From positions 1 through 13,613 of the forward strand of contig CAYXWT010000018.1 in NCBI GenBank assembly GCA_964468895.1: DNA of 13,613 bases, read 5' to 3'. The stretch comes from an uncultured archaeon (GTDB lineage Archaea; Iainarchaeota; Iainarchaeia; Iainarchaeales; CSSED10-239). The notes beneath the pieces were generated by a model. It saw only the letters and a program-made list of their open reading frames with translations. It did not search any database and was not told the DNA's origin. The number at the start of each line of letters is the position of its first letter. Positions within the stretch are counted from its first letter, which is position 1. A program made the translations under genes and the position numbers. Shown here in pieces: positions 1 through 13,613 of this stretch.

Positions 1-1
1 A

Positions 2-718
2 TTATATTAACATACTACTTAAATAAAATTTGATATTTGTATTTTCATCAATTTTATAATTAATATATAAAGGAACTTCCTCAGAAAACTTAATATTTAA
101 AATAGCTTCGTTATCCATTGATTTAACAATATTTCTTAAAAAAGAAAGTGAATATTTTGCAATTATATTTTTTTTACATTTAACTTTTACTTCAGAAACT
201 TTGGTTTTGATATTACCTTTTTCTCCAGTAGCTTCAATTATAAATTTACTATCTTCAATTTTAAAAATTAAAGTTGTTGCAACTAAACTTACATCTTTAA
301 TTATTTCTTTTAATAAACCAGCATTTATATCAAAATTTGCATCATACTTTATATCTGGAAGATTTATTTTTTGCTCAGAAAGATCCATATATGGTAAATT
401 AAAATTTCTTTCAATTTTACCTTTAAGTAATATATCTAAATATTGATCTTTTAGATCTAGAACTAAAGTATCTTTGTCAAAGGATCTAGAAACCATATGT
501 AAAAGTTCTTGAATATTAAGTCCAACTAAATTAGGTTCAATATGATAAGAATCAAATGCCTTTTTGGACATACTAAAATCAACAAGTAATATCTGTGTTT
601 TATCTATTGCTTTAATATAAATACCTATATCTTTAAATCTCACATTTGTTTCTTGTATTAAAGAGCTAACAACTTCTAAACTTTTCTTAAATAAAGATAT
701 ATTTTTTGTTTTAATCAT
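2..718 (-). CDS. pcn: DNA polymerase sliding clamp (PCNA)
   Basis: Complete 238-aa ORF with ATG at 716-718 and TAA at 2-4. Length and the N-terminal pattern (KSLEVVSSLIQETNVRFKDIGIYIKAIDKTQILLVDF...) match archaeal PCNA. It lies divergent to the clamp-loader large subunit gene. Family assignment is from memory, not a search. Confidence 0.85.
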   Translation of the reverse strand: MIKTKNISLFKKSLEVVSSLIQETNVRFKDIGIYIKAIDKTQILLVDFSMSKKAFDSYHIEPNLVGLNIQELLHMVSRSFDKDTLVLDLKDQYLDILLKGKIERNFNLPYMDLSEQKINLPDIKYDANFDINAGLLKEIIKDVSLVATTLIFKIEDSKFIIEATGEKGNIKTKVSEVKVKCKKNIIAKYSLSFLRNIVKSMDNEAILNIKFSEEVPLYINYKIDENTNIKFYLSSMLI

Positions 719-882
719 ATTTATTTCACAATTTAATTCTTAAACATAAATTCTATTCTGTTTTTGTATAAATATATACCCAAATGATTTATAAATATAA
801 AGTATAAGTTTTTAGGAAAACAAATTTATATCTAAATTTAGAAATAAGAATATTTATATTTACTTTTATATAAAATATATTT

Positions 883-2127
883 ATGAGAAAGTTTTTTGAA
901 AAATATACTCCTAAATCTTTAGATAAAGTTGTTAGTAATAAAAAAGCAGTTTTACAAATTAAAAAATGGGCTGAAAACTATAAAGAAAAACCTTTATTTA
1001 TATATGGTGCTACTGGTGTTGGCAAAACACTTTGTGCTAATTTAATAGCTAAAGAGTTAGGTTGGGATATATTTAATACAGATTCCTCAGAAATTAGAGA
1101 TAAAGAAGTTGTAAGAAACATAATACAAGTAGCGTGTACTAGTAACACTTTATTTTCAAAAACAAGATTAATATTAATAGATGAAGTAGATGCAATTATT
1201 GATAAAAGAGGTCATGGTAAAGATAGTGGCTTTTTTAGTGAATTTTCTAAAGTAGTAATTAAAAGTATACAACCTATAATATTTATTGCAAATGATCCTT
1301 ATGCTAATAAAAAAGCAAGACCAATATTTGAAAAATGTGAAAAAGTTAAATTTGATTTACCTAATAAATTATCTATTGCAAAATTTGCAAGAGAAATATG
1401 TGATAATGAAAATATAGAATATGATGAAATATCCATTAAAGCATTAATCGAAAATTGTAGTAATGATATTAGAGCTATGATGAATGATCTTTTTACTTTA
1501 AGTTTTTTTAAAAAGATTACTCTTGAAGATATAGATTCATTAGGTAGTAGAAAAAAAGAAGAAGATATTTTTAAAGTTATGCAAAAAATATTTTATCCTA
1601 AAGATTTTTATGAAACTAGAACTATCTTAAAAGATAGTAATGTAAATTGGAATCTATTAATGGCATGGGTAGAAGAAAATATACCTAGACAATATACAAA
1701 TCCAATAAATCTAAAACAAGGTATGGAAAAATTAAGTAAAGCAGATTTATATTATGGACGAATCAGAGGTAATAAATGGATTCTTTTAAAATATGTCATT
1801 GATTATCTAACTATTGGGGTAGCATATTCAAAAACAGAAAAACAAAGTTTCAAATATACTCCATTTCAATTTCCTAAAGCTATTAAAGAACTAGGAAGTA
1901 GTAAAAAAAATAGAAATATTCAAAAAAGTATTTTAAACAAATTACAAGAATACCTTCATTGTTCAAAACACATAATTTTAAGAGACCATCTAGAAATATT
2001 AAAAATAATTGCAAAAACTAATAAATTTACAAAAGAATTTGTTTTAAAATTTAATTTTGATATTGATGAACTTAAATATTTAGGATGTAAAATAACTCCT
2101 AAAAAATATGAAGAATTAATTAAATAA
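883..2127 (+). CDS. rfcL: Replication factor C large subunit (clamp loader, AAA+)
   Basis: 414 aa. The N-terminal FEKYTPKSLDKVV matches the RFC box (W.EKYRPK.L..V). Walker A is GATGVGKT and Walker B is LILIDEVDAI, and the helical C-terminal half is typical of archaeal RfcL. There is no SD; a TATA-like tatttata at 851-858 sits about 25-32 nt upstream of the ATG, which suggests a leaderless mRNA. Confidence 0.8.
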   Translation: MRKFFEKYTPKSLDKVVSNKKAVLQIKKWAENYKEKPLFIYGATGVGKTLCANLIAKELGWDIFNTDSSEIRDKEVVRNIIQVACTSNTLFSKTRLILIDEVDAIIDKRGHGKDSGFFSEFSKVVIKSIQPIIFIANDPYANKKARPIFEKCEKVKFDLPNKLSIAKFAREICDNENIEYDEISIKALIENCSNDIRAMMNDLFTLSFFKKITLEDIDSLGSRKKEEDIFKVMQKIFYPKDFYETRTILKDSNVNWNLLMAWVEENIPRQYTNPINLKQGMEKLSKADLYYGRIRGNKWILLKYVIDYLTIGVAYSKTEKQSFKYTPFQFPKAIKELGSSKKNRNIQKSILNKLQEYLHCSKHIILRDHLEILKIIAKTNKFTKEFVLKFNFDIDELKYLGCKITPKKYEELIK

Positions 2128-2136
2128 TGATGTTTT

Positions 2137-2892
2137 ATGCCTCCTAAAAAAGTTAGAAGTCCTATTAAAGATATTCACACAATGGTTTCTACAAATCCAA
2201 ATGTAGAACATGCATTTGTAAAAACCCCTACTAAAAAGGTATGTGAATGCTCAAACAGAAAAGAAAAAGAACACACAACAATTAATAGAGAAGCTGTAAA
2301 AAAGTATCTCGGAGAAGAAACTAGAAATTATTCTAAGATACACACACATCCTGCAAATAAGAAATTCTCTTTAATTCCAAGTCCTCAAGATATTTTTAAT
2401 TTATTATCTTTATCTACAAAAAGATCACATACAATATATGTAACTGGAAAAAAAGAAGTTTTAGGTACAATACATTATATGGTAAAAAATGAAACAGTGG
2501 CTAAAGAAATTTTTAATAGATATACCAAATTTAAAAAATCAATACTTGAAAGTAAAACTTTACAAGAAAAACTATCTTCAACATTACACAAAGGCCAAAC
2601 ATTAGAAAAATTATATCAATCATTTACAATATATAATACACTTATGGCTAAAGAAAATGGTGTCAAATATTTTAGTACAAAATATGACACTTATATGAAA
2701 GAACATGAAAAAACAAAAAATCCAAATGAAGAATTATTTAAAAAAATTAATTTTTTAACAGAAAATTTGCTTAGAAATAAAAAAAATCTACTAGAAATTT
2801 GGAATTTACTAGGTATAAAAATAAGATACACTCCTAATAAAAAAAAAGGATATAGATTTGATCCAAAAACTATTGATTTTATAAAAACTTAA
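2137..2892 (+). CDS. Hypothetical protein with JAMM/MPN-like HxH...SxxD motif
   Basis: 251-aa ORF that starts 9 nt after the rfcL stop and ends 27 nt before the ABCE1 ATG, on the same strand, so operon-like. It contains IHTHPANKKFSLIPSPQDIF, which resembles the JAMM Zn-site motif HxHx7SxxD but with a 10-residue spacer. The C-terminal half is K/E-rich and helical. I recognise no family. Confidence 0.6.
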   Translation: MPPKKVRSPIKDIHTMVSTNPNVEHAFVKTPTKKVCECSNRKEKEHTTINREAVKKYLGEETRNYSKIHTHPANKKFSLIPSPQDIFNLLSLSTKRSHTIYVTGKKEVLGTIHYMVKNETVAKEIFNRYTKFKKSILESKTLQEKLSSTLHKGQTLEKLYQSFTIYNTLMAKENGVKYFSTKYDTYMKEHEKTKNPNEELFKKINFLTENLLRNKKNLLEIWNLLGIKIRYTPNKKKGYRFDPKTIDFIKT

Positions 2893-2919
2893 AATAAAAA
2901 ATAATTGAATGATGATAAT

Positions 2920-4704
2920 ATGAGTAAAGATATAAGAATAGCAATAATTGATAAAGATAAGTGTAATCCAAAATCTTGTAATTACCTTTGTAAAAGACTT
3001 TGTCCAGGAGTTAGAATGGGAGAAGACACTATAGTTATAGATGAACAAAGAAAACTACCAACTATTGATGAAACTCTTTGTACTGGCTGTGGAATTTGTG
3101 TTAATAGATGTCCACAAAAAGCTATTAAAATCGTTAGAATTGGGGTAGAGTTTGATAAACCAATTCATCAATATGATAAAAATTCCTTTAGAATATATTC
3201 CTTACCAGTTTTAGAAAAAGGATATATTACTGGTCTAATTGGTAGAAATGGTATTGGCAAAACTACTGCATTAAATATATTATCAGGAAATTTAATTAGC
3301 AATTTTGGAGATTATACTAATTCTAAAGAAAAAACTTTAGATAATACTATTGAATTCTTTAGAGGTAAAAATATTCAAAAACATTTTGAAGATTTAAAAA
3401 ATAAAGAAATAAATATAGCTTACAAAATACAAAAAGTTGAAGATATACCAAAAGCTTTTGATAAAAAAATTATTAGCTTACTTGAAAGTATAAATAAAAA
3501 CCAAGATGAAATAAATTTAATTGTTAAAGAATTAAATTTAGAAAAGATTATTAATAAAACACCTCAAGAAATAAGTGGTGGTGAATTACAAAAAGTAGCA
3601 ATTGCTGCAACTTTACTTAAAAATTCCAATATTTACTTTATAGATGAATATTCTACATTTTTAGATATTAAACAACGATTTAAAATTGCAAAATATTTAA
3701 ATAAAATTATTTCTAAAGATAAGTCTATTATCTTAATTGAACATGATCTTGCAATTTTAGATTATTTAAGTGATTTTGTGCAAGTTATGTTTGGAAGTAA
3801 AAATGCATATGGTGCTTGTTCAAATAAAAAAACTACTAAAAAAGGTATTAATGAATTTTTAGATGGCTTTTTAAAAGAAGAAAATATCAGAATTAGAGAA
3901 TATGAACTTTCATTTGCTAGTAGTAAAGATAAAACTGAAGTTAAAAAACAAGAGTTTATATCTTATCCTTCTTTTAAAAAAGAACTTGGTTCTTTTAAAT
4001 TAGAATCTGATAGTGGAAATGTAAGTTGTGGAGAAATTATTGGTATAATTGGTCCAAATGCTATTGGTAAAACAACTTTTATTAAATTATTATCAGGAAA
4101 CTTAAAACCAGATAACACTATTAAAGAATTAAATTATAAAATATCTTATAAACCACAATATATTGATTTAGATGAAAACAAAACTGTTAGAGAATTATTT
4201 CATTCTAAAGAAATAAATGTCGAAATGTTTGAAAGTGAACTTAAAGGACAATTAAATCTTGAAGATGTATTTGAACAAAAAGTAAAAGAATTAAGTGGTG
4301 GAGAATTACAAAAAGTAGCTATAGCACATTGCTTAGCTAAAAATGCAGATATTTATTTAATAGATGAACCTAGTGCATTTTTAGATATTGAACTTAGATT
4401 AATTATAAGTAATACTATTAAAAACATCATTAATAAAACTGGCAAGTGTGCTTTTATTGTAGATCATGACATAATGCTTTTAGATGCCATTTCTGATAAG
4501 ATGTTATTATTTGAAGGTGAAGAAGGAGTTTTTGGAAAAGCAAGTAAGATTACTAATGTAGAAGAATGTTTTAATAAATTTTTAAAAACACAAGATATAA
4601 CTTTTAGACAGGATCCTCAAACAAAAAGACCAAGAGCAAATAAAGAAAATTCACAAAAAGATCAAGAACAAAAGAAAAACAATAAATATTATTATACTTT
4701 ATAA
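2920..4704 (+). CDS. abce1: ABCE1 / RNase L inhibitor homologue (ribosome recycling ATPase, 2x[4Fe-4S] + twin ABC)
   Basis: The N-terminus carries two Fe-S motifs: CNPKSCNYLCKRLCP (Cx4Cx3Cx3CP) and CTGCGICVNRCP (Cx2Cx2Cx3CP). There are two ABC domains: Walker A GRNGIGKTT and GPNAIGKTT, signature SGGELQKVAIA twice, Walker B IYFIDEYSTFLD and IYLIDEPSAFLD. The C-terminal RQDPQTKRPRANK...YYY tail is typical of ABCE1. The track start at 2905 is TTG; the first in-frame ATG at 2920 gives MSKDIRIAIIDKDKC, matching usual ABCE1 N-termini. Confidence 0.93.
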   Translation: MSKDIRIAIIDKDKCNPKSCNYLCKRLCPGVRMGEDTIVIDEQRKLPTIDETLCTGCGICVNRCPQKAIKIVRIGVEFDKPIHQYDKNSFRIYSLPVLEKGYITGLIGRNGIGKTTALNILSGNLISNFGDYTNSKEKTLDNTIEFFRGKNIQKHFEDLKNKEINIAYKIQKVEDIPKAFDKKIISLLESINKNQDEINLIVKELNLEKIINKTPQEISGGELQKVAIAATLLKNSNIYFIDEYSTFLDIKQRFKIAKYLNKIISKDKSIILIEHDLAILDYLSDFVQVMFGSKNAYGACSNKKTTKKGINEFLDGFLKEENIRIREYELSFASSKDKTEVKKQEFISYPSFKKELGSFKLESDSGNVSCGEIIGIIGPNAIGKTTFIKLLSGNLKPDNTIKELNYKISYKPQYIDLDENKTVRELFHSKEINVEMFESELKGQLNLEDVFEQKVKELSGGELQKVAIAHCLAKNADIYLIDEPSAFLDIELRLIISNTIKNIINKTGKCAFIVDHDIMLLDAISDKMLLFEGEEGVFGKASKITNVEECFNKFLKTQDITFRQDPQTKRPRANKENSQKDQEQKKNNKYYYTL

Positions 4705-4707
4705 TTT

Positions 4708-5253
4708 TTAAGTATAAGTTCCATTTTGATCTAATTGAACATGATCTAAATTATAATTATCTTTTATTTTTATATTACAAATACCTGCAGGTCCAGGATA
4801 ACTAACAACTATATCTTTACTAAATTTTAAAATTTTTGTAATATCTGAAACAATCACCTTATTTCTTTTACTACAACTAATTTCAATTTCTCCATAATAA
4901 TTAATACTTAAAGGTGCTGCACCACCAATATTAGAATCTAGAACATTATAATAACAATTGGTTCCTAAATAATTCTTAGAATCATTTTTAAAAGAATTTA
5001 AATATTCTTGAATTTTATCATCATATTCTGTATCTAAAAAAAAGGTATAACCTGCAGGCATAAAACTTGTAGGAACATAAGTTTGATCTGCTAATGCGTC
5101 TACTATTATATTATCAACTATTAAAGAAATATCTTCTATTTCTTGAATATTAGAAGTTATGATTTCAGATTTATTTGTAATTGAAGTATTAGGTAATAAT
5201 AATGCAAACATTATTAAAACAAATAAAATATCAAAAAAACCTTTATTTCGCAT
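4708..5253 (-). CDS. Type IV pilin-like protein (class III signal peptide-like N-terminus), 4th gene of operon
   Basis: An ATG at 5251-5253 (the track start at 5262 is GTG) gives MRNKG/FFDILFVLIMFALLL: a basic leader, Gly, then a hydrophobic helix. The body has 3 Cys and the sequons NTS, NKS, NDS and NGT. The start overlaps the upstream gene's end by 11 nt. Confidence 0.6.
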   Translation of the reverse strand: MRNKGFFDILFVLIMFALLLPNTSITNKSEIITSNIQEIEDISLIVDNIIVDALADQTYVPTSFMPAGYTFFLDTEYDDKIQEYLNSFKNDSKNYLGTNCYYNVLDSNIGGAAPLSINYYGEIEISCSKRNKVIVSDITKILKFSKDIVVSYPGPAGICNIKIKDNYNLDHVQLDQNGTYT

Positions 5254-5533
5254 AATTCTCACAATATCTATTTATTTGTAAACCACTTTGTGTATCTAAA
5301 TCAGAAGATTCTGGATCATAAACCAATTGTATTGAACACCAACCATTAGTAGTATATGTTTGAAGTCCCGGCACATCTCTATACAATAAATCTTTAGTTC
5401 TATAATATAAAGATTCTACTGAATCAATTACTTCAAATTTATTTGTAAGTAAAAGAAATATGCTTAAAAATAATATAAATAAAGCTACAAAATGTAAAGC
5501 TGTAATTGAAAAAAATATTCCTTTTTTATTCAT
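5243..5533 (-). CDS. Type IV pilin-like protein (class III signal peptide-like N-terminus), 3rd gene of operon
   Basis: An ATG at 5531-5533 (the track start at 5545 is GTG) gives MNKKG/IFFSITALHFVALFILFLSIFLLL, followed by a roughly 65-aa body with 2 Cys. It overlaps the upstream gene by 8 nt and the downstream gene by 11 nt. Confidence 0.55.
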   Translation of the reverse strand: MNKKGIFFSITALHFVALFILFLSIFLLLTNKFEVIDSVESLYYRTKDLLYRDVPGLQTYTTNGWCSIQLVYDPESSDLDTQSGLQINRYCENYAK

Positions 5534-6053
5534 CTTTCCACACACTTAAAGTAACATCACTAAATTCAAAAATTAAAGAAATATCTAATAAATCGTTCAT
5601 ATAACTACTTTTAGATATATCTCTATTACCAATAATATAATCCATTTTAAATTTAATTTTATAAATGTTAACTACAGACAAATCTACTATATCAGTACAC
5701 TCATTAGTTATACCTGGTGGCAAACCAGTAATATGACACTTATAATTATCAGGAATATCTAAATTTTCTTTTGTAATTTCTGAATCATCACCTATACAAT
5801 TTGAAAGTAAAAAATTATTTTGTGTATCATAAATATAACAATTTAACTTTGGGTTTGAAACTAATTTTTTGTAAGTAGAATTACCTATAAGGTCTAACTC
5901 TTTTAAATGATTATTAGTATTAGTTTTATAAATTTTGACTTCTGCAATTTTAGATAATAAAAACAATAAAAGTATAATTATAATTAAAGCAAAAACAATA
6001 TCTAAAGAAAACAACTGTGCTTTATTTTTTTTTTTTAATTTTATCAAATTCAT
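5526..6053 (-). CDS. Type IV pilin-like protein (class III signal peptide), 2nd gene of operon
   Basis: The N-terminus is MNLIKLKKKNKA/QLFSLDIVFALIIIILLLFLL: a basic leader, Ala-Gln junction, acidic residue near +6 and a long hydrophobic helix. The body has 4 Cys. Confidence 0.7.
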   Translation of the reverse strand: MNLIKLKKKNKAQLFSLDIVFALIIIILLLFLLSKIAEVKIYKTNTNNHLKELDLIGNSTYKKLVSNPKLNCYIYDTQNNFLLSNCIGDDSEITKENLDIPDNYKCHITGLPPGITNECTDIVDLSVVNIYKIKFKMDYIIGNRDISKSSYMNDLLDISLIFEFSDVTLSVWKDE

Positions 6054-6091
6054 TTTAAAACCAACAAAACATTATTTAAAGTAACATAAAA

Positions 6092-6556
6092 TTAAGGTAC
6101 ATTACTTAAATTATCACAATCTATATCACCAGCATCAAAAACACATTCTAAAGTTTGAGAACAATAGGTTCTTAAACCCAAAATCAAATTATTACTAGAA
6201 TCTAAATTAGTTTGTAAATTAGTAGTAATACCACCATATGCAGAACTATAAATTACAATGTTAGTATGGTTAATATCTATTGTACAGTTTACTTTTTTAC
6301 TAGCTATATCTATTGAAGGAATACTCATACTATTGCTAATTTGAGTATAATTATTTATAGGAAAATCTAACAAACTATCTTGTGTTTTTAAAAAGTTATT
6401 TATTTCTAAAGCAATATCTAATTGTTGCTCTTTAATTTTATTTATTTCTAAAGATTTTACAGTCATATTGGAAAGACTTGTATAAATATATAAAAAAACA
6501 ATTATTAAAAGTACTACAATTAATATTTCTAAAGATATTTGTGCTTTATTTTTCAT
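6092..6556 (-). CDS. Type IV pilin-like protein (class III signal peptide), 1st gene of operon
   Basis: The N-terminus is MKNKA/QISLEILIVVLLIIVFLYIY. QISLEILIV fits the archaeal class III signal peptide motif QxSxExxx(L/V), with Gln as +1 of the prepilin-peptidase site. The body has 4 Cys and 5 N-x-S/T sequons (NMT, NYT, NCT, NHT, NLS). Confidence 0.75.
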   Translation of the reverse strand: MKNKAQISLEILIVVLLIIVFLYIYTSLSNMTVKSLEINKIKEQQLDIALEINNFLKTQDSLLDFPINNYTQISNSMSIPSIDIASKKVNCTIDINHTNIVIYSSAYGGITTNLQTNLDSSNNLILGLRTYCSQTLECVFDAGDIDCDNLSNVP

Positions 6557-6695
6557 ATAACTGTCACATAAAATTATAATAACTATAATTATAGATTATA
6601 AAAAGTATTTTAAAAGTATTTACTATTAATAAATAATAGTATAATAGATATTAAAAGATTAATGTTAATTAAAAAATGCTTTGGAGATTATTTTT

Positions 6696-7229
6696 ATGCC
6701 TATTAGAAAAAGATCTATTAAAAAAAAACCTATTAAAAAAGCAATTATTGATTTTACAAAAGGTTTTGTAGAAAAATATTCTTGTAAATCAGCCTCTTTT
6801 AAAAGAAAAAATCAAGTTACATCTAAATATTATATTGATCTTTTAGGATTTCTTAAAAATTACAAAATCATTGATGAAGTAATACATACTTGTTTTGTAA
6901 GAGACTTACCTATAGAAACACAGATCTTAAAAATAAACAACCTTTACAAAAAAAAATATTCTAAAAAATATGATTCATTACAAAATTATATAGATAATAT
7001 GATAGAAAACATAAAAAAAACACATGAAAAAGTTCTTGAAGAATATGATAAAGGAAAATTAGATTCTTCTAATGGTAAAGATTATAATCATCATTTTAAT
7101 TCACCATATGGTATGATTATTATTGGATTAGCTGTGATACCTGAGGTAACAAGAAGAATCAAAGACAAATACAAGACTAATGAGATTACTAAAGAAATAA
7201 TAGATAATTATTTTTCTAAAGATAAATAA
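6696..7229 (+). CDS. Hypothetical lysine-rich protein
   Basis: The ORF track starts at TTG 6681. An ATG at 6696 is preceded by GGAG (6683-6686) with a 9-nt spacer, giving 177 aa that begin MPIRKRSIKKKPIKK. I recognise no family. The gene is divergent from the pilin-like operon. Confidence 0.55.
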   Translation: MPIRKRSIKKKPIKKAIIDFTKGFVEKYSCKSASFKRKNQVTSKYYIDLLGFLKNYKIIDEVIHTCFVRDLPIETQILKINNLYKKKYSKKYDSLQNYIDNMIENIKKTHEKVLEEYDKGKLDSSNGKDYNHHFNSPYGMIIIGLAVIPEVTRRIKDKYKTNEITKEIIDNYFSKDK

Positions 7230-7238
7230 AAAAAAAAA
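7230..7238 (-). terminator. Oligo-T (T9 on minus strand) candidate archaeal terminator after ef1b
   Basis: An A9 run on the + strand is T9 immediately 3' of the minus-strand EF-1beta stop codon. Archaeal RNAP terminates at oligo-T tracts. T/A runs are common in this composition, so the support is modest. Confidence 0.35.
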
Positions 7239-7505
7239 TTAGATTAAAGTTTGCATTGCAACTTCAATTTCACTTACACCATCAATTCCTTTTAAAAAGT
7301 TTTCTAGTTTATCTGATAAACCACTTATTTTATCTGGAAATATAAATGATGCTTTTACTAACTCTAAACCAAAAGCAATTGGTTCTAATTCTATTGTATT
7401 TAATTTAAATTCTTCTGGTAAATTTTTTTGGATAGCTTCTTTAACTTTATTTACTTCATCTATACCTTCTGGATAGATTTTATATGCTGTTAATATATCA
7501 CCCAT
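7239..7505 (-). CDS. ef1b: Translation elongation factor aEF-1 beta
   Basis: 88 aa from the ATG at 7503-7505; the track start at 7514 is GTG. The sequence MGDILTAYKIYPEGIDEVNKVKEAIQKNLPEEFKLNTIELEPIAFGLELVKASFIFPDK...GIDGVSEIEV matches the archaeal EF-1beta pattern (MG...K.MPE...EPIAFGL...GV...EV). GGAG (complement of 7514-7517) lies 8 nt upstream of the ATG. Confidence 0.9.
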   Translation of the reverse strand: MGDILTAYKIYPEGIDEVNKVKEAIQKNLPEEFKLNTIELEPIAFGLELVKASFIFPDKISGLSDKLENFLKGIDGVSEIEVAMQTLI

Positions 7506-7563
7506 TAATAACACTCCACATTAATAACTAATTAGTTATATTTAATTTGATTAAATTTTTTAT

Positions 7564-7719
7564 TTAAGGTCCAATAAATCCACATTCTGGACATTTATAA
7601 TTTTTTACTGTAGCTTTACAAGATTCACATCTTACAATTCTAGCTTTACCACATTTAGGACACTTGAATTCAGTATATTCTGATACTAATTCTTTATTAC
7701 AACTTGTACATTTTGCCAT
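7564..7719 (-). CDS. Small four-CxxC Zn-ribbon protein (COG2888-type putative translation-associated RNA-binding protein)
   Basis: Not in the supplied track because it is too short. My translation is MAKCTSCNKELVSEYTEFKCPKCGKARIVRCESCKATVKNYKCPECGFIGP* (51 aa). It has four CxxC pairs, enough for two Zn sites. A strong SD, GAGGTG (complement of 7727-7732), lies 7 nt upstream of the ATG. It sits immediately upstream of ef1b on the same strand, a pairing I recall as conserved in archaea. Confidence 0.8.
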   Translation of the reverse strand: MAKCTSCNKELVSEYTEFKCPKCGKARIVRCESCKATVKNYKCPECGFIGP

Positions 7720-7863
7720 AGTTTAACACCTCAAAAATAATTTTATTTGAATTTTTTAAAATTAGTTTTTATATTGTACTTGATTTCAAAAAATAATAAA
7801 TATAAAAATACTTTATACTATATATATTATATTGAAACCACATATTTTAAAAGATATTGGTTT

Positions 7864-7871
7864 TTTAAATA
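7864..7871 (+). promoter_or_regulatory. Candidate TATA box for tRNA-Arg
   Basis: tttaaata is centred about 25 nt upstream of the mature tRNA 5' end (7893), matching the archaeal TATA consensus TTTAWATA and its usual spacing. TATA-like strings are frequent at this AT content. Confidence 0.3.
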
Positions 7872-7892
7872 TATAAAAAACACTTATTAAAT

Positions 7893-7964
7893 GGGTCTAT
7901 AGTATAGTGGATAGTACGGTTGGCTTCGGACCAACAAACTGGGGTTCAAATCCCCATAGACTCT
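7893..7964 (+). tRNA. tRNA-Arg (anticodon UCG), no encoded 3' CCA
   Basis: Folded by hand. Acceptor GGGTCTA/TAGACTC (one G-U). D stem GTAT/GTAC with loop AGTGGATA (GG present). Anticodon stem GTTGG/CCAAC with loop CTTCGGA (U33, anticodon TCG, G37). 4-nt variable loop AAAC. T stem TGGGG/CCCCA with loop TTCAAAT. Discriminator T at 7964, followed by tt rather than CCA. This is the only GC-rich island in the window. Confidence 0.9.
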
Positions 7965-7977
7965 TTAACAGATATTT

Positions 7978-9351
7978 CTATAATAAAAATTCTTCTTTAT
8001 TTAAAAAGAACTTAGAAAAATAACTAGAAATCTCTAAATTACTTAAATAAAGATCTCTTACTTCTTCACCAACATAAACTTTTGTAGGTAATTTAAAATT
8101 ATTAAATAAAAAATCTAAAATTAAAGGTTTAATATTTATTTGATTTCTTAATTTTAAACTATAAAGATAATCTTCTTTTATATATGGTCCAAAACTAGCT
8201 CTGGAATTATTAATAAAATTTTCACAATGAACTATACTATTTACTTTTGGACCAATACTAAGTTTTAAACCTGATCTTTGCAAATTATTAACAATTACAA
8301 ATACATAGGCTTTACTACTATCTTCATTATAATAATAATTTAATTTTAAAATTTTAAAATCTTCTTCATTTAAATAAATATTTAATTTTTTACCAAGTCT
8401 TCTAATTTTAGACCAAACAATATCTTTTAATAAATCTTTATTTTCTATTTCAAGTATTAATAAAGGGATATTTTCTATTTTACCAACTAATTGGTTATAA
8501 TTTAAATTTCTAAATATTTTTTCTTTAAAAAAATCTAAAGTTGGATTATTTAAAAATAATCTCGAAGCCATTATAAATTTACTAATTGTTGTTCTAGCTA
8601 CTGCTGATGCAACATTTCTATTTGAATCTGTAGGATCAATAACAATTAAAGGATCATTAAATTTATTTAAAGAAACTTCATGTTCATCTTCTAAAGCTAT
8701 TTTAGTATTAAAATCCCAATTATTTACAGCTTGTAATACTCCTAAAAAATCATTATAGTATAATACTAATAATTCACATAAATATCCTGAAAATCCTAAA
8801 AACTCAGAATCTGCTCCATAACAACCTATTCTTTTTAAAAAATATTTTAATAATCTAATATCATCTTTTTGTGAATTTTTTAAAGCTTTAAGTAAATATT
8901 CTAAATGAAAAGGGGTTCTATCAACTGCACTTATTAGTTCACTAGTATTTTCTATATCATAAGCAGGAACTACTTCTACTTTATAACCATCTATTATTCC
9001 TCTAATATAAGGATGTTGAGAATATGCTTTTTCCCAGAAATTACCTTTAAATACTTCTTTACCTAAAGATAAAGATTGATTCACAAATACTTCTTTATCT
9101 GTATCTTTTGGATACATTACAAATATATCAAAATCTTTTGAATCTTTTAAATTTGTATTTCTTGCAAATGAACCTGCAATTATTGCTTTTTTATGTACAC
9201 CGTTCATTTTGTTTATTTTATTTAATAATGAATCTACAAATTTTTTCTCATGATTATTTTGAGAAGAACTTGGTTTTATTTCTTTTAAAATTTCTTTAAT
9301 AACTCTTTTAAATTCATTTAATTTAGAAGAATCTATTCCAAATTTAACCAT
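7978..9351 (-). CDS. cca: CCA-adding enzyme (archaeal class I tRNA nucleotidyltransferase)
   Basis: 457 aa. The Pol-beta-type nucleotidyltransferase motif is AGSFARNTNLKDSKDFDIFVMYP (GS...DxD). SAVDRTPFHLEYL matches the conserved archaeal CCA enzyme DRTPFH segment. Length is typical. Confidence 0.9.
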   Translation of the reverse strand: MVKFGIDSSKLNEFKRVIKEILKEIKPSSSQNNHEKKFVDSLLNKINKMNGVHKKAIIAGSFARNTNLKDSKDFDIFVMYPKDTDKEVFVNQSLSLGKEVFKGNFWEKAYSQHPYIRGIIDGYKVEVVPAYDIENTSELISAVDRTPFHLEYLLKALKNSQKDDIRLLKYFLKRIGCYGADSEFLGFSGYLCELLVLYYNDFLGVLQAVNNWDFNTKIALEDEHEVSLNKFNDPLIVIDPTDSNRNVASAVARTTISKFIMASRLFLNNPTLDFFKEKIFRNLNYNQLVGKIENIPLLILEIENKDLLKDIVWSKIRRLGKKLNIYLNEEDFKILKLNYYYNEDSSKAYVFVIVNNLQRSGLKLSIGPKVNSIVHCENFINNSRASFGPYIKEDYLYSLKLRNQINIKPLILDFLFNNFKLPTKVYVGEEVRDLYLSNLEISSYFSKFFLNKEEFLL

Positions 9352-9457
9352 AAAAATACCTGTTTATAATTATTGTTCTTATATAATATATATAGTAACA
9401 TACATATTATAAATATTATTAAACTACAATAAAATATAATTAAAATTTGATTTTAAA

Positions 9458-11308
9458 ATGTGTGGAATAATAGGTTATATTGGATCTAGAAATTGTTACC
9501 CTATATTATTAAAAGGATTAAAAAGATTAGAGTATAGAGGTTATGATTCTTGTGGAATTGCAACAATAAATAATAAAAAAATAAACATAATTAAAACAAA
9601 AGGAAGAATTAAAAATTTAGAAGAAAAATTAAAAAAATTAGATTTAAAAGAAAGCAATATAGGTATTGCTCATACTAGATGGGCTACACACGGAATACCT
9701 GATGAAACTAATTCACATCCACACACAGATTGTACTAGTTCTATAGCAATAGTTCATAATGGTATTATTGAAAATTATGAAGCTCTTAAGAAATATTTAA
9801 CTAGTAAAGGACATAATTTTAAAAGTGAAACTGATTCTGAAATAATTGCTCATTTAATAGAAGAATTTTATAAACAAGATAATGATTTTATAAAAGCTAT
9901 TAGAAAAGCATTATCTGAACTTACTGGTACTTTTGGTTTAGCAATTATAAATAAAAATATAAATAAAATATATGTAGCAAGAAGAGGTTCACCAATTATT
10001 ATAGGAATTGGACATAATGAATTTTTTATAGCAAGTGATGTTTCTGCAATTATTGAACATACTAAAAATATAATTTATTTAGATGATAATGAGTTAATAG
10101 AATTAGATTATAAAAATTATAAAATAACCAATTTAAAAGATACAGATAAAGAAATTATTAAAGAAATTACAAAAGTAACAATGTCTTTAAAAGAAATTGA
10201 AAAAGGTGATTTTAAACATTTTATGCTTAAAGAAATATTTGAACAACCAACTACTATTAGAAATGCACTTTCTGGAAGAATTGATTTTGAAAATTTAAAT
10301 TCTAAACTAGGTGGTATTGGAGAATATAAAGAACATATTTATTTTTATGAAAATTTACAAAAAATTGTTATTGTTGCTTGTGGAACTTCTTATCATTGTG
10401 CATTAGTTTCTAAATATTTTATAGAAAAATATTTAAGAATACCAGTAGAAGCTGAATTTGCTTCTGAATTTAGATATAAAAATCCAATTATAAATAAAAA
10501 TACACTTGTTATTCCTATTAGCCAGTCAGGAGAAACAGCTGATACTCTTGGAGCTTTAACAATTGCTAAAGAAAAGAAATCTAAATTACTAGGAATAGTT
10601 AATACTGTTGCAAGTACTATTGCTAGAGAATGTGGAGAAGGAATACATATTAGAGCAGGTGTTGAAATTGGTGTTGCTTCAACTAAAGCATTTACAAACC
10701 AATTAGTTGCTATATATTTATTAACAATATATATTGGAAGAATAACTCATAAAATTGATAATTTACTTACAAGAAAGTTATTTAATAGTTTAACAAGACT
10801 TCCAAATATTATAGAAGAAATGTTGAAAGAAAATAATAATATTAAAATAATTGCAAATAAATATAAAGATTATAAAAACATCATATTTCTAGGAAGAGGA
10901 ATTAATTATCCTATAGCCCTAGAAGGAGCACTTAAACTTAAAGAAATTTCTTATATTAATTCTCAAGCATATGCTGCAGGAGAAATGAAACATGGTCCAT
11001 TAGCAATAGTTGATAACAAAACAGTATCTATAGTTATAGCTAATAAAAATCATGAATATGAAAAAATGTTATCTACTATTAATGAAATTAAATCTAGAAG
11101 TGGTAAAATAATATGTATTACAAATAAAAACAATCTTAAACTAGAAGGTAAGGTAGATGATATTATATATATACCAACTATAAATTATGATTTTGAAGCA
11201 TTTATTAATGTAGTTGTTTTACAATTATTTGCATATAATGTAGCAAACCTTAATAATTGTGAAATAGACAAGCCTAGAAATCTTGCAAAATCAGTTACTG
11301 TTGAATAA
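9458..11308 (+). CDS. glmS: Glutamine--fructose-6-phosphate aminotransferase (isomerising)
   Basis: 616 aa. MCGIIGYIG carries the Ntn Cys1 nucleophile and AHTRWATHG is present. There are two SIS domains (SQSGETADT, GVASTKAFT). The C-terminus is the canonical KPRNLAKSVTVE. Confidence 0.95.
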   Translation: MCGIIGYIGSRNCYPILLKGLKRLEYRGYDSCGIATINNKKINIIKTKGRIKNLEEKLKKLDLKESNIGIAHTRWATHGIPDETNSHPHTDCTSSIAIVHNGIIENYEALKKYLTSKGHNFKSETDSEIIAHLIEEFYKQDNDFIKAIRKALSELTGTFGLAIINKNINKIYVARRGSPIIIGIGHNEFFIASDVSAIIEHTKNIIYLDDNELIELDYKNYKITNLKDTDKEIIKEITKVTMSLKEIEKGDFKHFMLKEIFEQPTTIRNALSGRIDFENLNSKLGGIGEYKEHIYFYENLQKIVIVACGTSYHCALVSKYFIEKYLRIPVEAEFASEFRYKNPIINKNTLVIPISQSGETADTLGALTIAKEKKSKLLGIVNTVASTIARECGEGIHIRAGVEIGVASTKAFTNQLVAIYLLTIYIGRITHKIDNLLTRKLFNSLTRLPNIIEEMLKENNNIKIIANKYKDYKNIIFLGRGINYPIALEGALKLKEISYINSQAYAAGEMKHGPLAIVDNKTVSIVIANKNHEYEKMLSTINEIKSRSGKIICITNKNNLKLEGKVDDIIYIPTINYDFEAFINVVVLQLFAYNVANLNNCEIDKPRNLAKSVTVE

Positions 11309-11312
11309 ATTA

Positions 11313-11318
11313 TTTTTT
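11313..11318 (+). terminator. Oligo-T candidate terminator after glmS
   Basis: A TTTTTT run begins 5 nt after the glmS stop codon, in the convergent gap with the Fic gene. Support is weak given the composition. Confidence 0.25.
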
Positions 11319-11428
11319 CAGATTTCTAAAATTAAGAGGTTTTTATTGCTAAAAGATAACATTTTATACAAAACACCATATTTTCTATAAGTACAATTGC
11401 ACTTACAAATAAAATAAATAAAAACTAT

Positions 11429-12559
11429 TTATAAATCAGATAATATTTTATTAATATCTTTTGCAACATATAATTTATTTTTTACTTCTTCTAAGATTCC
11501 TAATTCTACCAATTTTAATATTACTCTTTTAGAAGTATTATAATTTTTAGTATTTAGTATTTCTTTACCTTTCTTTATATCAATATAAGGATTAGAAAAC
11601 AAATAATCATATATTTTAAGTACTTTAATATTAACATTTTGATCTTTTAAATTTTTTCTAGTTTGAGACCTATAATCTAATAAATTAGAAACTCTATGAA
11701 TTGTTTTTTCAGATTGTTCTATAACTCCATCTAAAAAATATTCTATCCAAGAATTAAAATTACTATTCATAGAAACTTGTAACAAAGAAGAATAATATTT
11801 TTCTTTATCTTTTTCAAAATATTCACTTAAATAAAGAATAGGTTTATCTAATAATTTACACCTACATAAATATAATATTAATAATAATCTTCCTACTCTT
11901 CCATTTCCATCTACAAAAGGGTGTATTGCTTCAAATTGGTAATGTAAAATTGCAACTTTTACTAAAGAAGAATTTTCATTTGAACTATTTAAATATTCAA
12001 CAAAATTATTTAGAAGATCTTTAACTAGTTCTGGATTTGGAGGATTATAAACAGATGTTTCAATAGAACTATTAATATTACCAATCCAATTTTGAACAGT
12101 TCTTATTTTGCCACTATCTTTAGAAAATCCTCTTACATCATAAAGTAATATTTCATTTAATTTTAAAATTAAATCTAAAGTAAGATCTTTACTTTCTATT
12201 TCTTTAAGTCCAAATTCTAAAGATTTAATATAATTCAAAACTTCTTTTAAATCATTATGTAAATGTTTTGAATTTATATCCATTTTAAAAACATCTGACA
12301 AAGAAGATCTTGTACCTTCTATTCTAGAACTTAATACAGCTTCTTTTTTTAAATAAGGTTTTAAAAATAAATCTGGATTAGGTAAATTATTAATTAATCC
12401 AGATAATTTTCCAAGATAGTTATTAGATAATTCTATTTTTTTAATTATAGAATTACTATAATTTATTGTAATAGGAAGTTTATTAGGTATAAATACATTA
12501 TATTTATTATCTATAGTAATAATTTTTCCATTTGGATTTTTAAAACTTGATTTATCCAT
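11429..12559 (-). CDS. Fic/DOC family protein (class II, N-terminal inhibitory helix, C-terminal wHTH-like domain)
   Basis: 376 aa. The canonical Fic motif HPFVDGNGRVGR fits HxFx(D/E)GNGRxxR. An N-terminal SSRIEG fits the inhibitory (S/T)xxxE(G/N) motif of class II Fic proteins (Fic_N type). The C-terminal ~70 aa (NTSKRVILKLVELGILEE) look like a winged helix. There is no SD; a TATA-like atttataaat (12581-12590) lies 22-31 nt upstream of the ATG, which suggests a leaderless mRNA. Confidence 0.9.
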   Translation of the reverse strand: MDKSSFKNPNGKIITIDNKYNVFIPNKLPITINYSNSIIKKIELSNNYLGKLSGLINNLPNPDLFLKPYLKKEAVLSSRIEGTRSSLSDVFKMDINSKHLHNDLKEVLNYIKSLEFGLKEIESKDLTLDLILKLNEILLYDVRGFSKDSGKIRTVQNWIGNINSSIETSVYNPPNPELVKDLLNNFVEYLNSSNENSSLVKVAILHYQFEAIHPFVDGNGRVGRLLLILYLCRCKLLDKPILYLSEYFEKDKEKYYSSLLQVSMNSNFNSWIEYFLDGVIEQSEKTIHRVSNLLDYRSQTRKNLKDQNVNIKVLKIYDYLFSNPYIDIKKGKEILNTKNYNTSKRVILKLVELGILEEVKNKLYVAKDINKILSDL

Positions 12560-12620
12560 ATTTTAAATATGAAACTAAACATTTATAAATTGTGTTAAAA
12601 ATTAGTACCAAAAACCACTA

Positions 12621-12702
12621 TTTTGGCAACATTTGCAAAAAAGTTGCCAATTTTGGCAATATTAAAGACAAAGTTTCCAAAACAACCTGTTTTTGGCAAC
12701 AT
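12621..12702. promoter_or_regulatory. Array of five phased TTGGCAA(C/T) half-sites (candidate operator / iteron-like array)
   Basis: TTGGCAAC is at 12623-12630 (+), GTTGCCAA at 12643-12650 (inverted), TTGGCAAT at 12653-12660 (+), GTTTCCAA at 12673-12680 (inverted, 1 mismatch) and TTGGCAAC at 12693-12700 (+). Start-to-start spacings are 20, 10, 20 and 20 bp. The three + copies share the longer TTTTGGCAAYAT. Confidence 0.5.
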
Positions 12703-12868
12703 TTTCAATTTTTACAATTTTTTAATAAAAAAATTAATTTTCTTTAAAAGTTATTTAATTCAAATTTCTGCAAAAGATTTCTCAAAAAAAACATATACTT
12801 AAAAAATATTTAAATCTAATTATTATGTACCTTAAATACAATCCAAAATAAATTAAAATAAATTAATT

Positions 12869-13613
12869 ATGAACTTAGAGAAATATATTAAAGAAGAAAT
12901 TACAAAATTAAAAGAAAAAATAAACCAAAAAGACATTCCTTTAGCAATACAGATACCTGAAGGATTAAAACAATACTCCAAATCAATACTTGATCTATTA
13001 AAAGAGTATGAACCTGTGTTATTTGTAGATCCTTGTTACGGGGCATGTGATATAAAAGACACTGAAACACAAGAACTGAACTGTAAATCATTAGTTCATT
13101 TTGGACACTATAAATTAGTTGAACCAAGAATAAAGACATATTTTATACCAATAAAATATATTTTAAGTAAAGAACAAATAAACTATATAATAGAAGAAAT
13201 ACAAAAACTAAATTTAAAAAAAGTAAATTTAGTTACAACTATTCAGTATTTAAATAATATTTCTATTTTAAAAGAAGAATTACTTAAAAAAGATATAATT
13301 GTAGAGAAATGTAAGAAAACTAATAGAGTTCTAGAACATATGGTTCTAGGTTGTGATTGTTCTACAATTATTAATAAAGAAAGAACCATAATATTTATTG
13401 GAGATGGTTATTTTCATGTAAATAACCTTTCTTTCAATTACAAAACAGATATATATAGTATAAATCCTATTTCTAAAAATATAAATAAAATAAAAGTAAA
13501 TGAACAATTTATAAGAAAAAGATATGGAATAATAGCTAAAGCTAGAGAATCAAATATATTTGGAATATTAGTTAGTACAAAAGAAGGACAAAATAGAATA
13601 GAACTAGCTAAAA
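12869..13613 (+). CDS. dph2: Diphthamide biosynthesis radical-SAM enzyme Dph2 (2-(3-amino-3-carboxypropyl)histidine synthase), 5' partial
   Basis: An open frame runs from the ATG at 12869 to the window end (248 codons, no stop), so it is absent from the track. The translation contains IQIPEGL, PCYGACD, VHFGH, VLGCDCS, FIGDGYFH, EQFIRKRYGIIAKA and FGILVSTKEGQ, which are collinear with conserved blocks of archaeal Dph2, including two of the Fe-S Cys positions. Confidence 0.85.
   Translation, partial: MNLEKYIKEEITKLKEKINQKDIPLAIQIPEGLKQYSKSILDLLKEYEPVLFVDPCYGACDIKDTETQELNCKSLVHFGHYKLVEPRIKTYFIPIKYILSKEQINYIIEEIQKLNLKKVNLVTTIQYLNNISILKEELLKKDIIVEKCKKTNRVLEHMVLGCDCSTIINKERTIIFIGDGYFHVNNLSFNYKTDIYSINPISKNINKIKVNEQFIRKRYGIIAKARESNIFGILVSTKEGQNRIELAK

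Follow-up and report, generated by a model that had tools for sequence, protein, structure and literature searches.

The stretch of DNA analyzed here, referred to below as the window, comprises 13,613 nucleotides (nt) from an uncultured archaeon of the Iainarchaeota (GenBank assembly GCA_964468895.1, contig CAYXWT010000018.1, positions 1 to 13,613) and carries, on its minus strand and between the genes for ABCE1 and EF-1beta, a cluster of four small genes whose products resemble type IV pilins. We call these genes and their products P1 to P4, in the order in which they would be transcribed. The window has a GC content of ~22 %, and its other recognizable genes are those for PCNA, the RFC large subunit, ABCE1/RLI, EF-1beta, the archaeal CCA-adding enzyme, GlmS, a Fic protein, tRNA-Arg, and part of Dph2. 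A preliminary description, made from the sequence alone, had proposed four consecutive minus-strand genes for pilin-like proteins of 154, 175, 96, and 181 residues. The coordinates of the open reading frames (ORFs) agree with this (Table 1), the N-termini that it quoted are identical to those read from the ORFs, and recounting its cysteines (4, 4, 2, and 3) gave the same numbers.

The genes are tightly packed. P1 and P2 are separated by 38 nt in the window, while the last three genes overlap by 8 and 11 nt, as had been described before and as the sequences of both overlaps confirm. For the comparison with relatives, 11 loci were aligned per family, giving 44 sequences over the four families. 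P2 and P3 overlap by 4 to 13 nt and P3 and P4 by 11 to 23 nt in all 11 of these loci, which suggests translational coupling at both junctions. The stop of P1 abuts or overlaps the start of P2 (spacing ≤0) in 6 of the 11, and four loci other than the window have a P1-P2 gap of 9 to 32 nt.

Table 1. Positions of the four pilin-like genes, their overlaps, and further features of the window
Feature	Position	Strand	Basis or remark
P1, 154 aa	6092..6556	minus	ORF; pilin-like
P2, 175 aa	5526..6053	minus	ORF; pilin-like
P3, 96 aa counted from ATG	5243..5533	minus	ORF; pilin-like
P4, 181 aa counted from ATG	4708..5253	minus	ORF; pilin-like
P2 stop/P3 start overlap, 8 nt, ATGAATAA	5526..5533	minus	ORF coordinates
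P3 stop/P4 start overlap, 11 nt, ATGCGAAATAA	5243..5253	minus	ORF coordinates
Intergenic region 5' of P1, AT-rich, shared with the divergent 177-182 aa ORF; presumed promoter region of the operon	6557..6680	minus	Position
ORF, 177-182 aa, without family	6681-7229	+	Divergent from P1, between EF-1beta and the cluster
tRNA-Arg(TCG)	7893-7964	+	
Fic gene	11429-12559	minus	
5' part of diphthamide synthase (Dph2)-like gene, running off the contig	12868-13613	+	Occupies the seemingly empty window end

What the four proteins have in common is their N-terminus. Archaeal prepilins are recognized by Gly, Ala, or Ser at position −1, a charged residue at −2, and a processing site that lies ahead of the hydrophobic H-domain (PMC4371748). 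Each of the 44 sequences has a leader rich in Lys and Arg, Gly or Ala at −1, and then a hydrophobic stretch of ~20 residues, and four further loci that were read for signal features display the same pattern, in line with the earlier proposal that all four proteins are pilin-like. The leaders are 3 to 16 residues long (3 to 5 in P3 and P4), and the Gly/Ala at −1 is nearly always preceded by Lys, the exceptions being two P2 sequences and one P3 sequence with Asn, Gln, or Ser at −2, two of which have Lys or Arg further upstream. Kyte-Doolittle maxima over 19 residues reach 2.0 to 3.1 and fall at the N-terminus only. When all six frames of the window were searched for [KR][GA] with 18 hydrophobic residues behind it, close to an N-terminus, only the four genes matched, and their prepilin-like pattern is not due to chance.

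Each family has its own version of the predicted site, which is marked by a slash in what follows. P1 reads K-[AG]/Q-x-S-x-E, with Gln +1, Ser +3, and Glu +5 invariant (MKNKA/QISLE in the window), and P2 reads [GA]/Q-x-x-x-L-D, with Gln +1 and Asp +6 invariant (MNLIKLKKKNKA/QLFSLD in the window). P3 follows G/[FLMI] (window copy MNKKG/IFFSITAL), with Ala at −1 in a single locus (L028), and P4 follows G/[FL]-F-[DNSE] (window copy MRNKG/FFDILFVL). Glu +5 is found in P1 alone, and the N-terminal part of P3 and of P4 is without a conserved acidic residue. The preliminary description had fitted P1 to the class III motif QxSxExxxL; the QxSxE part holds, whereas the final Leu does not, as position 9 of the window's QISLEILIV is Val and varies in the family among Val, Gly, Ala, and Ile. 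A FlaFind-type motif matches P1 alone within the window.

The sites of P1 and P2 recall those of the Epd pilins of Methanococcus, listed as RAQI, KGQV, KGQV, KGQL, and KGQI (Table 1 in PMC4371748) and cut by the peptidase EppA, which requires Gln at +1 (PMC4371748). The corresponding variants are KAQI, KGQA, and KAQL in P1 and KAQL, KGQV, and KGQI in P2, both families thus having Gln +1, and P3 and P4 have Phe, Leu, Ile, or Met in its place. Given this match to the Epd list and the dependence of EppA on Gln +1, P1 and P2 carry Epd-type sites and P3 and P4 sites of the general type. In each family, conservation is highest in the segment behind the site, with a mean pairwise identity of 0.43 to 0.60 compared with 0.28 to 0.43 elsewhere, and we would therefore expect a retained pilin helix rather than a discarded Sec signal; in P4, a conserved Pro closes the hydrophobic segment. 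Secreted proteins cleaved by the Sec pathway were also considered and are ruled out, as the ~20 hydrophobic residues are the most conserved part of the proteins and are modeled as a helix continuous with the head.

The four genes are real and conserved. An exhaustive phmmer search with P4 (E ≤0.001) yielded 32 representatives, nearly all of 157 to 179 residues, aligned over their full length and with four conserved Cys; a 1513-aa RTX protein (P0036) among the results was discarded as a spurious weak match. Scanning GTDB genomes and metagenomes of the Joint Genome Institute (JGI) with a 7-sequence P4 alignment gave 14 loci, to which look-ups of the relatives of P1 and P4 added more. Synteny across relatives, which the preliminary description had named as a check, turned out to be strict: every locus with enough flank has the arrangement (Zn-ribbon protein)-EF-1beta-P1-P2-P3-P4, followed by the convergent ABCE1 and RFC genes, and this four-gene arrangement spans ~14 distinct lineages. 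Profile searches assign 32 proteins to the P1 family and 21 to the P2 family, both confined to contigs that carry the cluster. All four genes are present in a relative that is ~70 % identical (L008/L009), and the ratio of nonsynonymous to synonymous substitution rates (dN/dS) against it is 0.36 to 0.47 for P1 to P4 and 0.14 to 0.26 for the flanking housekeeping genes.

Past the N-terminus, the proteins resemble little that is known, much as had been noted before: the four window proteins reached the threshold of no Pfam or NCBIfam family, and no PDB sequence was matched when profiles of the four families were used as queries. The family most often matched by P1 members is PF04021 (Class_IIIsignal), with 10 of 31 members matching, all below threshold (best E 0.0033), and the Pfam scan gave no match to it in members of the P2, P3, and P4 families. 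Members of the P1 and P2 families have neither a name nor a Pfam family, except for one P1 ortholog that JGI labels "UPF0333 family". This label and the Epd-like K-[GA]/Q site of P1 and P2 make the "undescribed type" of the preliminary description too strong a term. No member of the four families has a Pfam match to the T2SSH/I/J/K, N_methyl, or ComG families, and neither the Pfam and NCBIfam scans nor the Pfam scans of family members detected a domain for substrate binding, DNA binding, or transport in the four proteins. In hhalign comparisons between the families, similarity is limited to the first 9 to 32 residues, the P2 and P1 families being alike over 32 N-terminal columns (E 9.5e-5), which rules out recent paralogy among the four.

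We then turn to the parts of the proteins that would face outward. P1, P2, P3, and P4 have 4, 4, 2, and 4 conserved Cys per family, the P3 pair appearing as WC...YC, and the presence of conserved Cys pairs in all four sequences fits extracellular heads. The window copy of P4 retains three of the four family Cys and has lost the first. At the lost Cys, it has an insertion of ~8 residues (residues ~60-72), leaving an odd number of Cys (3), and its ortholog in L008 (~58 % identical) keeps all four. The preliminary description had further cited many N-x-S/T sequons as a sign of glycosylated surface proteins. The counts in P1 to P4 (5, 1, 0, and 4) do not exceed what shuffled sequences of equal composition give (2.7, 2.0, 0.8, and 2.4), and the argument for glycosylation from sequons is rejected, leaving that claim without this support. 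As a side observation, cytoplasmic proteins of the window fall below their shuffle expectation (GlmS 1 versus 5.4; RFC 1 versus 2.6), with P1 and P4 at expectation, which may reflect a general intracellular avoidance of sequons or chance.

AlphaFold (AF2) models were built for P1 and P4 from the family alignments, and both are of good confidence. The P1 model, with a predicted local distance difference test score (pLDDT) of 84.3, has a helix at residues 2-62 followed by seven strands; the P4 model (pLDDT 87.5) has helices at 4-58 and 74-96 and then five strands. As predicted, the architecture is the helix-plus-sheet "lollipop" of pilins, and the long N-terminal helix with a beta-sheet that the preliminary description had looked to as a test of its proposal is thus present in both models.

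Of most interest in the set is the modular build of the fourth subunit. In the window, P4 is a bare 181-aa module, whereas in L030/L031 it is a protein of 674 aa in which the P4 module is joined to Fn3_assoc/CHB_HEX_C and GLUG repeats (L030 8001-10025), and in L032/L033 a protein of 375 aa in which it is followed by a C-terminal domain of ~200 aa without assignment (L032 6318-7445). In L030 and L032, the first three genes of the cluster are unchanged, and the extended P4 occupies the same operon slot. These extensions place the C-terminal end of P4 on the outside of the cell, and by analogy with modular bacterial pilins (PMC8179133), P4 is likely the exposed, adhesin-bearing subunit.

A further candidate was seen in another relative that has the four-gene cluster: directly after PCNA, L018 (7128-8549, plus strand) encodes a 473-aa protein with the N-terminus NLKA/ISPLIATILLVVVAVALISIV. 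This N-terminus resembles archaeal Pilin_N below threshold (PF07790, E 0.024), and the central part resembles FGE-sulfatase (E 0.049). Judged from its sequence, this could be a class III signal protein of large, modular build, hinting that the lineage makes other proteins of this class.

Among the window genes, there is no T2SSE-type ATPase, platform protein, or A24 peptidase, as the preliminary description had stated. The relatives were covered by scanning for the T2SSE Walker A and A24 GxGDxK motifs over ~250 kb of fetched loci around the cluster, together with precomputed Pfam tables of neighboring genes; neither the motif scan nor the tables revealed an assembly gene. The earlier description had treated this absence in cis as remarkable, but pilins that are unlinked to their assembly genes are the rule for many archaea (PMC4858521, PMC3875500). 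The genes for PilA1-6 of Haloferax are unlinked to pilB3/pilC3 (PMC4858521 section 11; PMC4371748), the pilus genes of Methanococcus are dispersed over at least four loci (PMC3875500), and DPANN genomes carry type IV filament (TFF) systems, including the Epd-like system 1 (bioRxiv 10.64898/2026.04.22.720090).

Taken together, the products of the operon are in our reading four type IV pilin-like proteins, unrelated to one another and specific to the lineage, that act as a minor-pilin priming or tip module, the machinery being supplied in trans, a reading to which we give a probability of slightly more than one half (roughly 0.55). Because all four genes are coupled or nearly so and constantly occur together in a fixed order, a minor-pilin module of ~1:1:1:1 composition is the most likely outcome: the overlaps and the strict co-occurrence argue for equimolar output, as would be expected of a hetero-oligomer of defined composition rather than of a filament subunit, which must be made in large excess. 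Their sizes (~95 to 180 aa) match the Epd minor pilins of 130 to 156 aa and not the Epd major pilin of 74 aa (PMC3875500). The preliminary description had likewise preferred a minor-pilin or tip set to a major subunit, and four unrelated families produced in a coupled manner fit that preference better. In kind, such a module would be already known, namely, a type IV pilin-like component whose assembly genes commonly lie elsewhere; what would be new are the four unnamed, lineage-restricted families, the fixed operon, and its core-gene neighborhood.

In the mechanism that we envisage, each precursor would be inserted in the membrane through its N-terminal hydrophobic helix, and a prepilin peptidase encoded elsewhere would cut the basic leader of 3 to 16 aa after the invariant Gly/Ala, at sites of the EppA/Epd type in P1 and P2 (K-[GA]/Q) and of the PibD/FlaK type in P3 and P4 (Gly before Phe, Leu, Ile, or Met). 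The retained helices would then form a bundle, and a type IV filament ATPase and platform encoded in trans would extrude the assembly. The four proteins, at ~1:1:1:1, would prime or cap a filament, with P1, as the only subunit with Glu +5, linking to the filament body and P4 in a distal, surface-exposed position in which it could carry adhesin-type domains. Cleavage, assembly, stoichiometry, the order of the subunits, and the adhesive role are all steps that we infer.

Several observations weigh against this interpretation. No peptidase, ATPase, or platform gene was seen within ~10 kb of the cluster in any relative. The PF04021 score of the window P1 lies below the gathering score (8.7 versus 23.7 bits), and the FlaFind-type motif fits 9 of 11 P1 sequences, 5 of 11 P2, 4 of 11 P3, and none of the 11 P4 sequences. 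The hydrophobic stretch of P4 is short (~15 aa ahead of the conserved Pro). Foldseek searches of the models against the PDB gave best E values of 0.02 (P4) and 0.24 (P1), with template modeling (TM) scores <0.4 and no pilin among the matches; those weak matches are generic alpha+beta rolls (NTF2-, VirB8-, and BPI-like folds), none of them significant, and a search of the P4 model against BFVD gave no significant neighbor. Pilin heads are, however, notoriously diverse, and for this reason the lack of a match to solved pilins is weak evidence against a pilin identity. Lastly, no major pilin was identified, and P1 could itself be the filament subunit.

This last point leads to a different reading, in which P1 is the major polymerizing subunit of a dedicated pilus and P2 to P4 are its three minor pilins, such that the operon would encode a complete filament minus its machinery. 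We take this to be a possible but unlikely arrangement. P1 is the first gene and has the sole canonical Q+1/S+3/E+5 N-terminus, its helix region at residues 35-45 (LEINKIKEQ) is strongly conserved, and it is set off from P2 by the above-mentioned gap in the window and in four other loci; moreover, the six-frame scan of the window revealed no further pilin-like ORF, and Aap and Ups pilins of 138 to 168 aa do serve as filament subunits (PMC3875500). In 6 of the 11 loci, however, P1 ends at or within the start of P2, favoring equimolar output over an excess of P1, and in Epd, the closest known system, the major pilin is a headless protein of 74 aa from a distant locus, the proteins of 130 to 156 aa being the minor ones (PMC3875500).

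The four proteins might instead remain unprocessed and anchored by their N-termini, as bitopic members of a lineage-specific surface complex unrelated to type IV filament machinery. The lack of assembly and peptidase genes in ~250 kb around the cluster, heads without a structural neighbor among pilins, P3 and P4 leaders of just 3 to 5 residues, and a conserved housekeeping neighborhood that suggests a core envelope function all agree with such a complex. It would, however, give no reason for an invariant, Lys-preceded Gly/Ala at the exact boundary in 44 sequences of four unrelated families, nor would it explain why P1 and P2 have invariant Gln +1 and Glu +5/Asp +6 in a copy of the Epd sites (PMC4371748). 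In addition, the continuous helices of 55 to 61 residues are far longer than a membrane span, and a relative encodes the protein with a Pilin_N-like N-terminus described above (sub-threshold), which together make an unprocessed complex improbable in our view. Still less credible is a short, non-extended pseudopilus or bindosome-like platform for the uptake of DNA or substrates in place of an adhesive filament: class III signal proteins also build bindosomes, a functionalization of TFF for scavenging has been proposed (bioRxiv 10.64898/2026.04.22.720090; PMC2910488), and the fact that a reduced genome has kept the set within a core gene neighborhood would fit an essential uptake role, but the four proteins have no detected substrate-binding, DNA-binding, or transporter domain, and the GLUG- and Fn3-associated P4 extensions are kinds found in surface proteins and not in binding proteins.

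Returning to the minor-pilin module, its nearest known counterpart is the Epd pilus of Methanococcus maripaludis (EpdA-D; DUF361/PF04021/UPF0333; peptidase EppA; TFF "system 1"). The two share the P1/P2 site K-[GA]/Q-[ILV] and the Glu +5 of P1, sizes in the range of minor pilins, the grouping of several different pilins, and pilin genes that lie apart from those of the ATPase and platform (PMC4371748, PMC3875500), and TFF system 1 has been reported in DPANN archaea (bioRxiv 10.64898/2026.04.22.720090). They differ in that PF04021 is matched only below threshold, with no detectable homology past the first ~25 residues, in that P3 and P4 lack the Gln +1 that EppA requires, and in the conserved Cys pairs of P1 to P4. 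Furthermore, the Epd minor-pilin genes belong to an 11-gene cluster that includes the peptidase, whereas the four genes described here stand alone between EF-1beta and ABCE1.

The gene content also recalls the bacterial minor-pilin sets (GspH-I-J-K of type II secretion, FimU-PilV-PilW-PilX of type IVa pili, and ComGD-GG), in which four small pilin-like proteins share one operon, only some members have an acidic residue near position 5, and the role is the priming and tipping of a filament, as we propose for P1 to P4; P4, as the one larger and more variable member, could correspond to the cap. In contrast to those sets, the proteins resemble T2SSI/J/K, N_methyl, and ComG neither in sequence nor by profile, and their leaders are archaeal, with a charged residue at −2, so that the likeness is one of analogy only, known here from the genes, their co-occurrence, and their coupling. 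It is tempting to speculate that the cluster arose independently in archaea as a counterpart of GspHIJK and FimU-PilVWX, that an Iainarchaeota-like DPANN lineage keeps it in its core genome as a fixed 1:1:1:1 module, and that P4 forms a distal cap whose exchangeable adhesin domains determine the target of attachment, possibly a host cell; we hold this fuller scenario to be tentative and rather doubtful.

Other comparisons concern single traits. The P4 slot of some relatives, a pilin module with C-terminal surface domains, is built like modular type IV pilins such as PilB of Streptococcus sanguinis (PMC8179133), although the P4 of the window is bare and the domains grafted in the relatives are unrelated to the streptococcal ones. 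In Haloferax volcanii, the genes of PilA1-6 are likewise unlinked to the PilB/PilC assembly genes and are not co-regulated with them (PMC4858521 section 11; PMC4371748); unlike the four unrelated families found here, those pilins are paralogs that share the DUF1628/Pilin_N H-domain, and each is able to serve as the major pilin. Finally, the "dark matter" pilins of DPANN archaea are, as here, recognizable by the signal peptide alone and have no similarity to other archaeal pilins (Makarova, Wolf, and Koonin 2019, PMC6393860), but they were spotted through linkage to FlaI/TadC-type genes, and the present set lies in a housekeeping neighborhood without such linkage.

If the minor-pilin reading is true, an AT-rich lineage with a probably small genome keeps a fixed four-subunit pilin module amid its genes for replication and translation, in its core genome and not in an accessory island, and four families that have so far been "hypothetical" everywhere would join the catalog of archaeal type IV filament components. 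The set would then offer a compact candidate for the priming or tipping of archaeal filaments, a process structurally detailed so far for bacteria only, and the P4 slot, bare in the window and extended by GLUG and Fn3 domains in relatives, would provide a handle on what these cells bind. The value of the finding lies in annotation and in targeted structural work; nothing known is overturned.

Some minor observations were made in the remainder of the window. The ORF of 177-182 aa that diverges from P1 has a counterpart in the closest relative (L008/L009) but in none of the more distant loci. The intergenic region that it shares with P1 is presumed to hold the promoter of the operon; a promoter and terminator scan of the window with a sigma-70 model called none, such a scan being uninformative in archaeal DNA of 20 % GC. 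Between RFC and ABCE1, a 251-aa ORF (2137-2892, plus strand) shares the C-terminal motif LLG[IV]K[IF]R[YF].PNKK.GY.F with a 290-aa ORF located after PCNA in L005 (5870-6742), and the two appear to be paralogs. Both have a HTHP...SPQD motif that is, by eye, reminiscent of JAMM/MPN metalloproteases, and neither had a match in the Pfam search. Lastly, the sequence TTTTGGCAACATTTGCAA occurs three times at 12620-12708, with spacings of 30 and 70 nt and 60 to 150 nt upstream of the Fic gene. Its first copy sits within the palindrome TGGCAAC...GTTGCCA, and from its sequence and position, the triplet looks like a set of operator sites.

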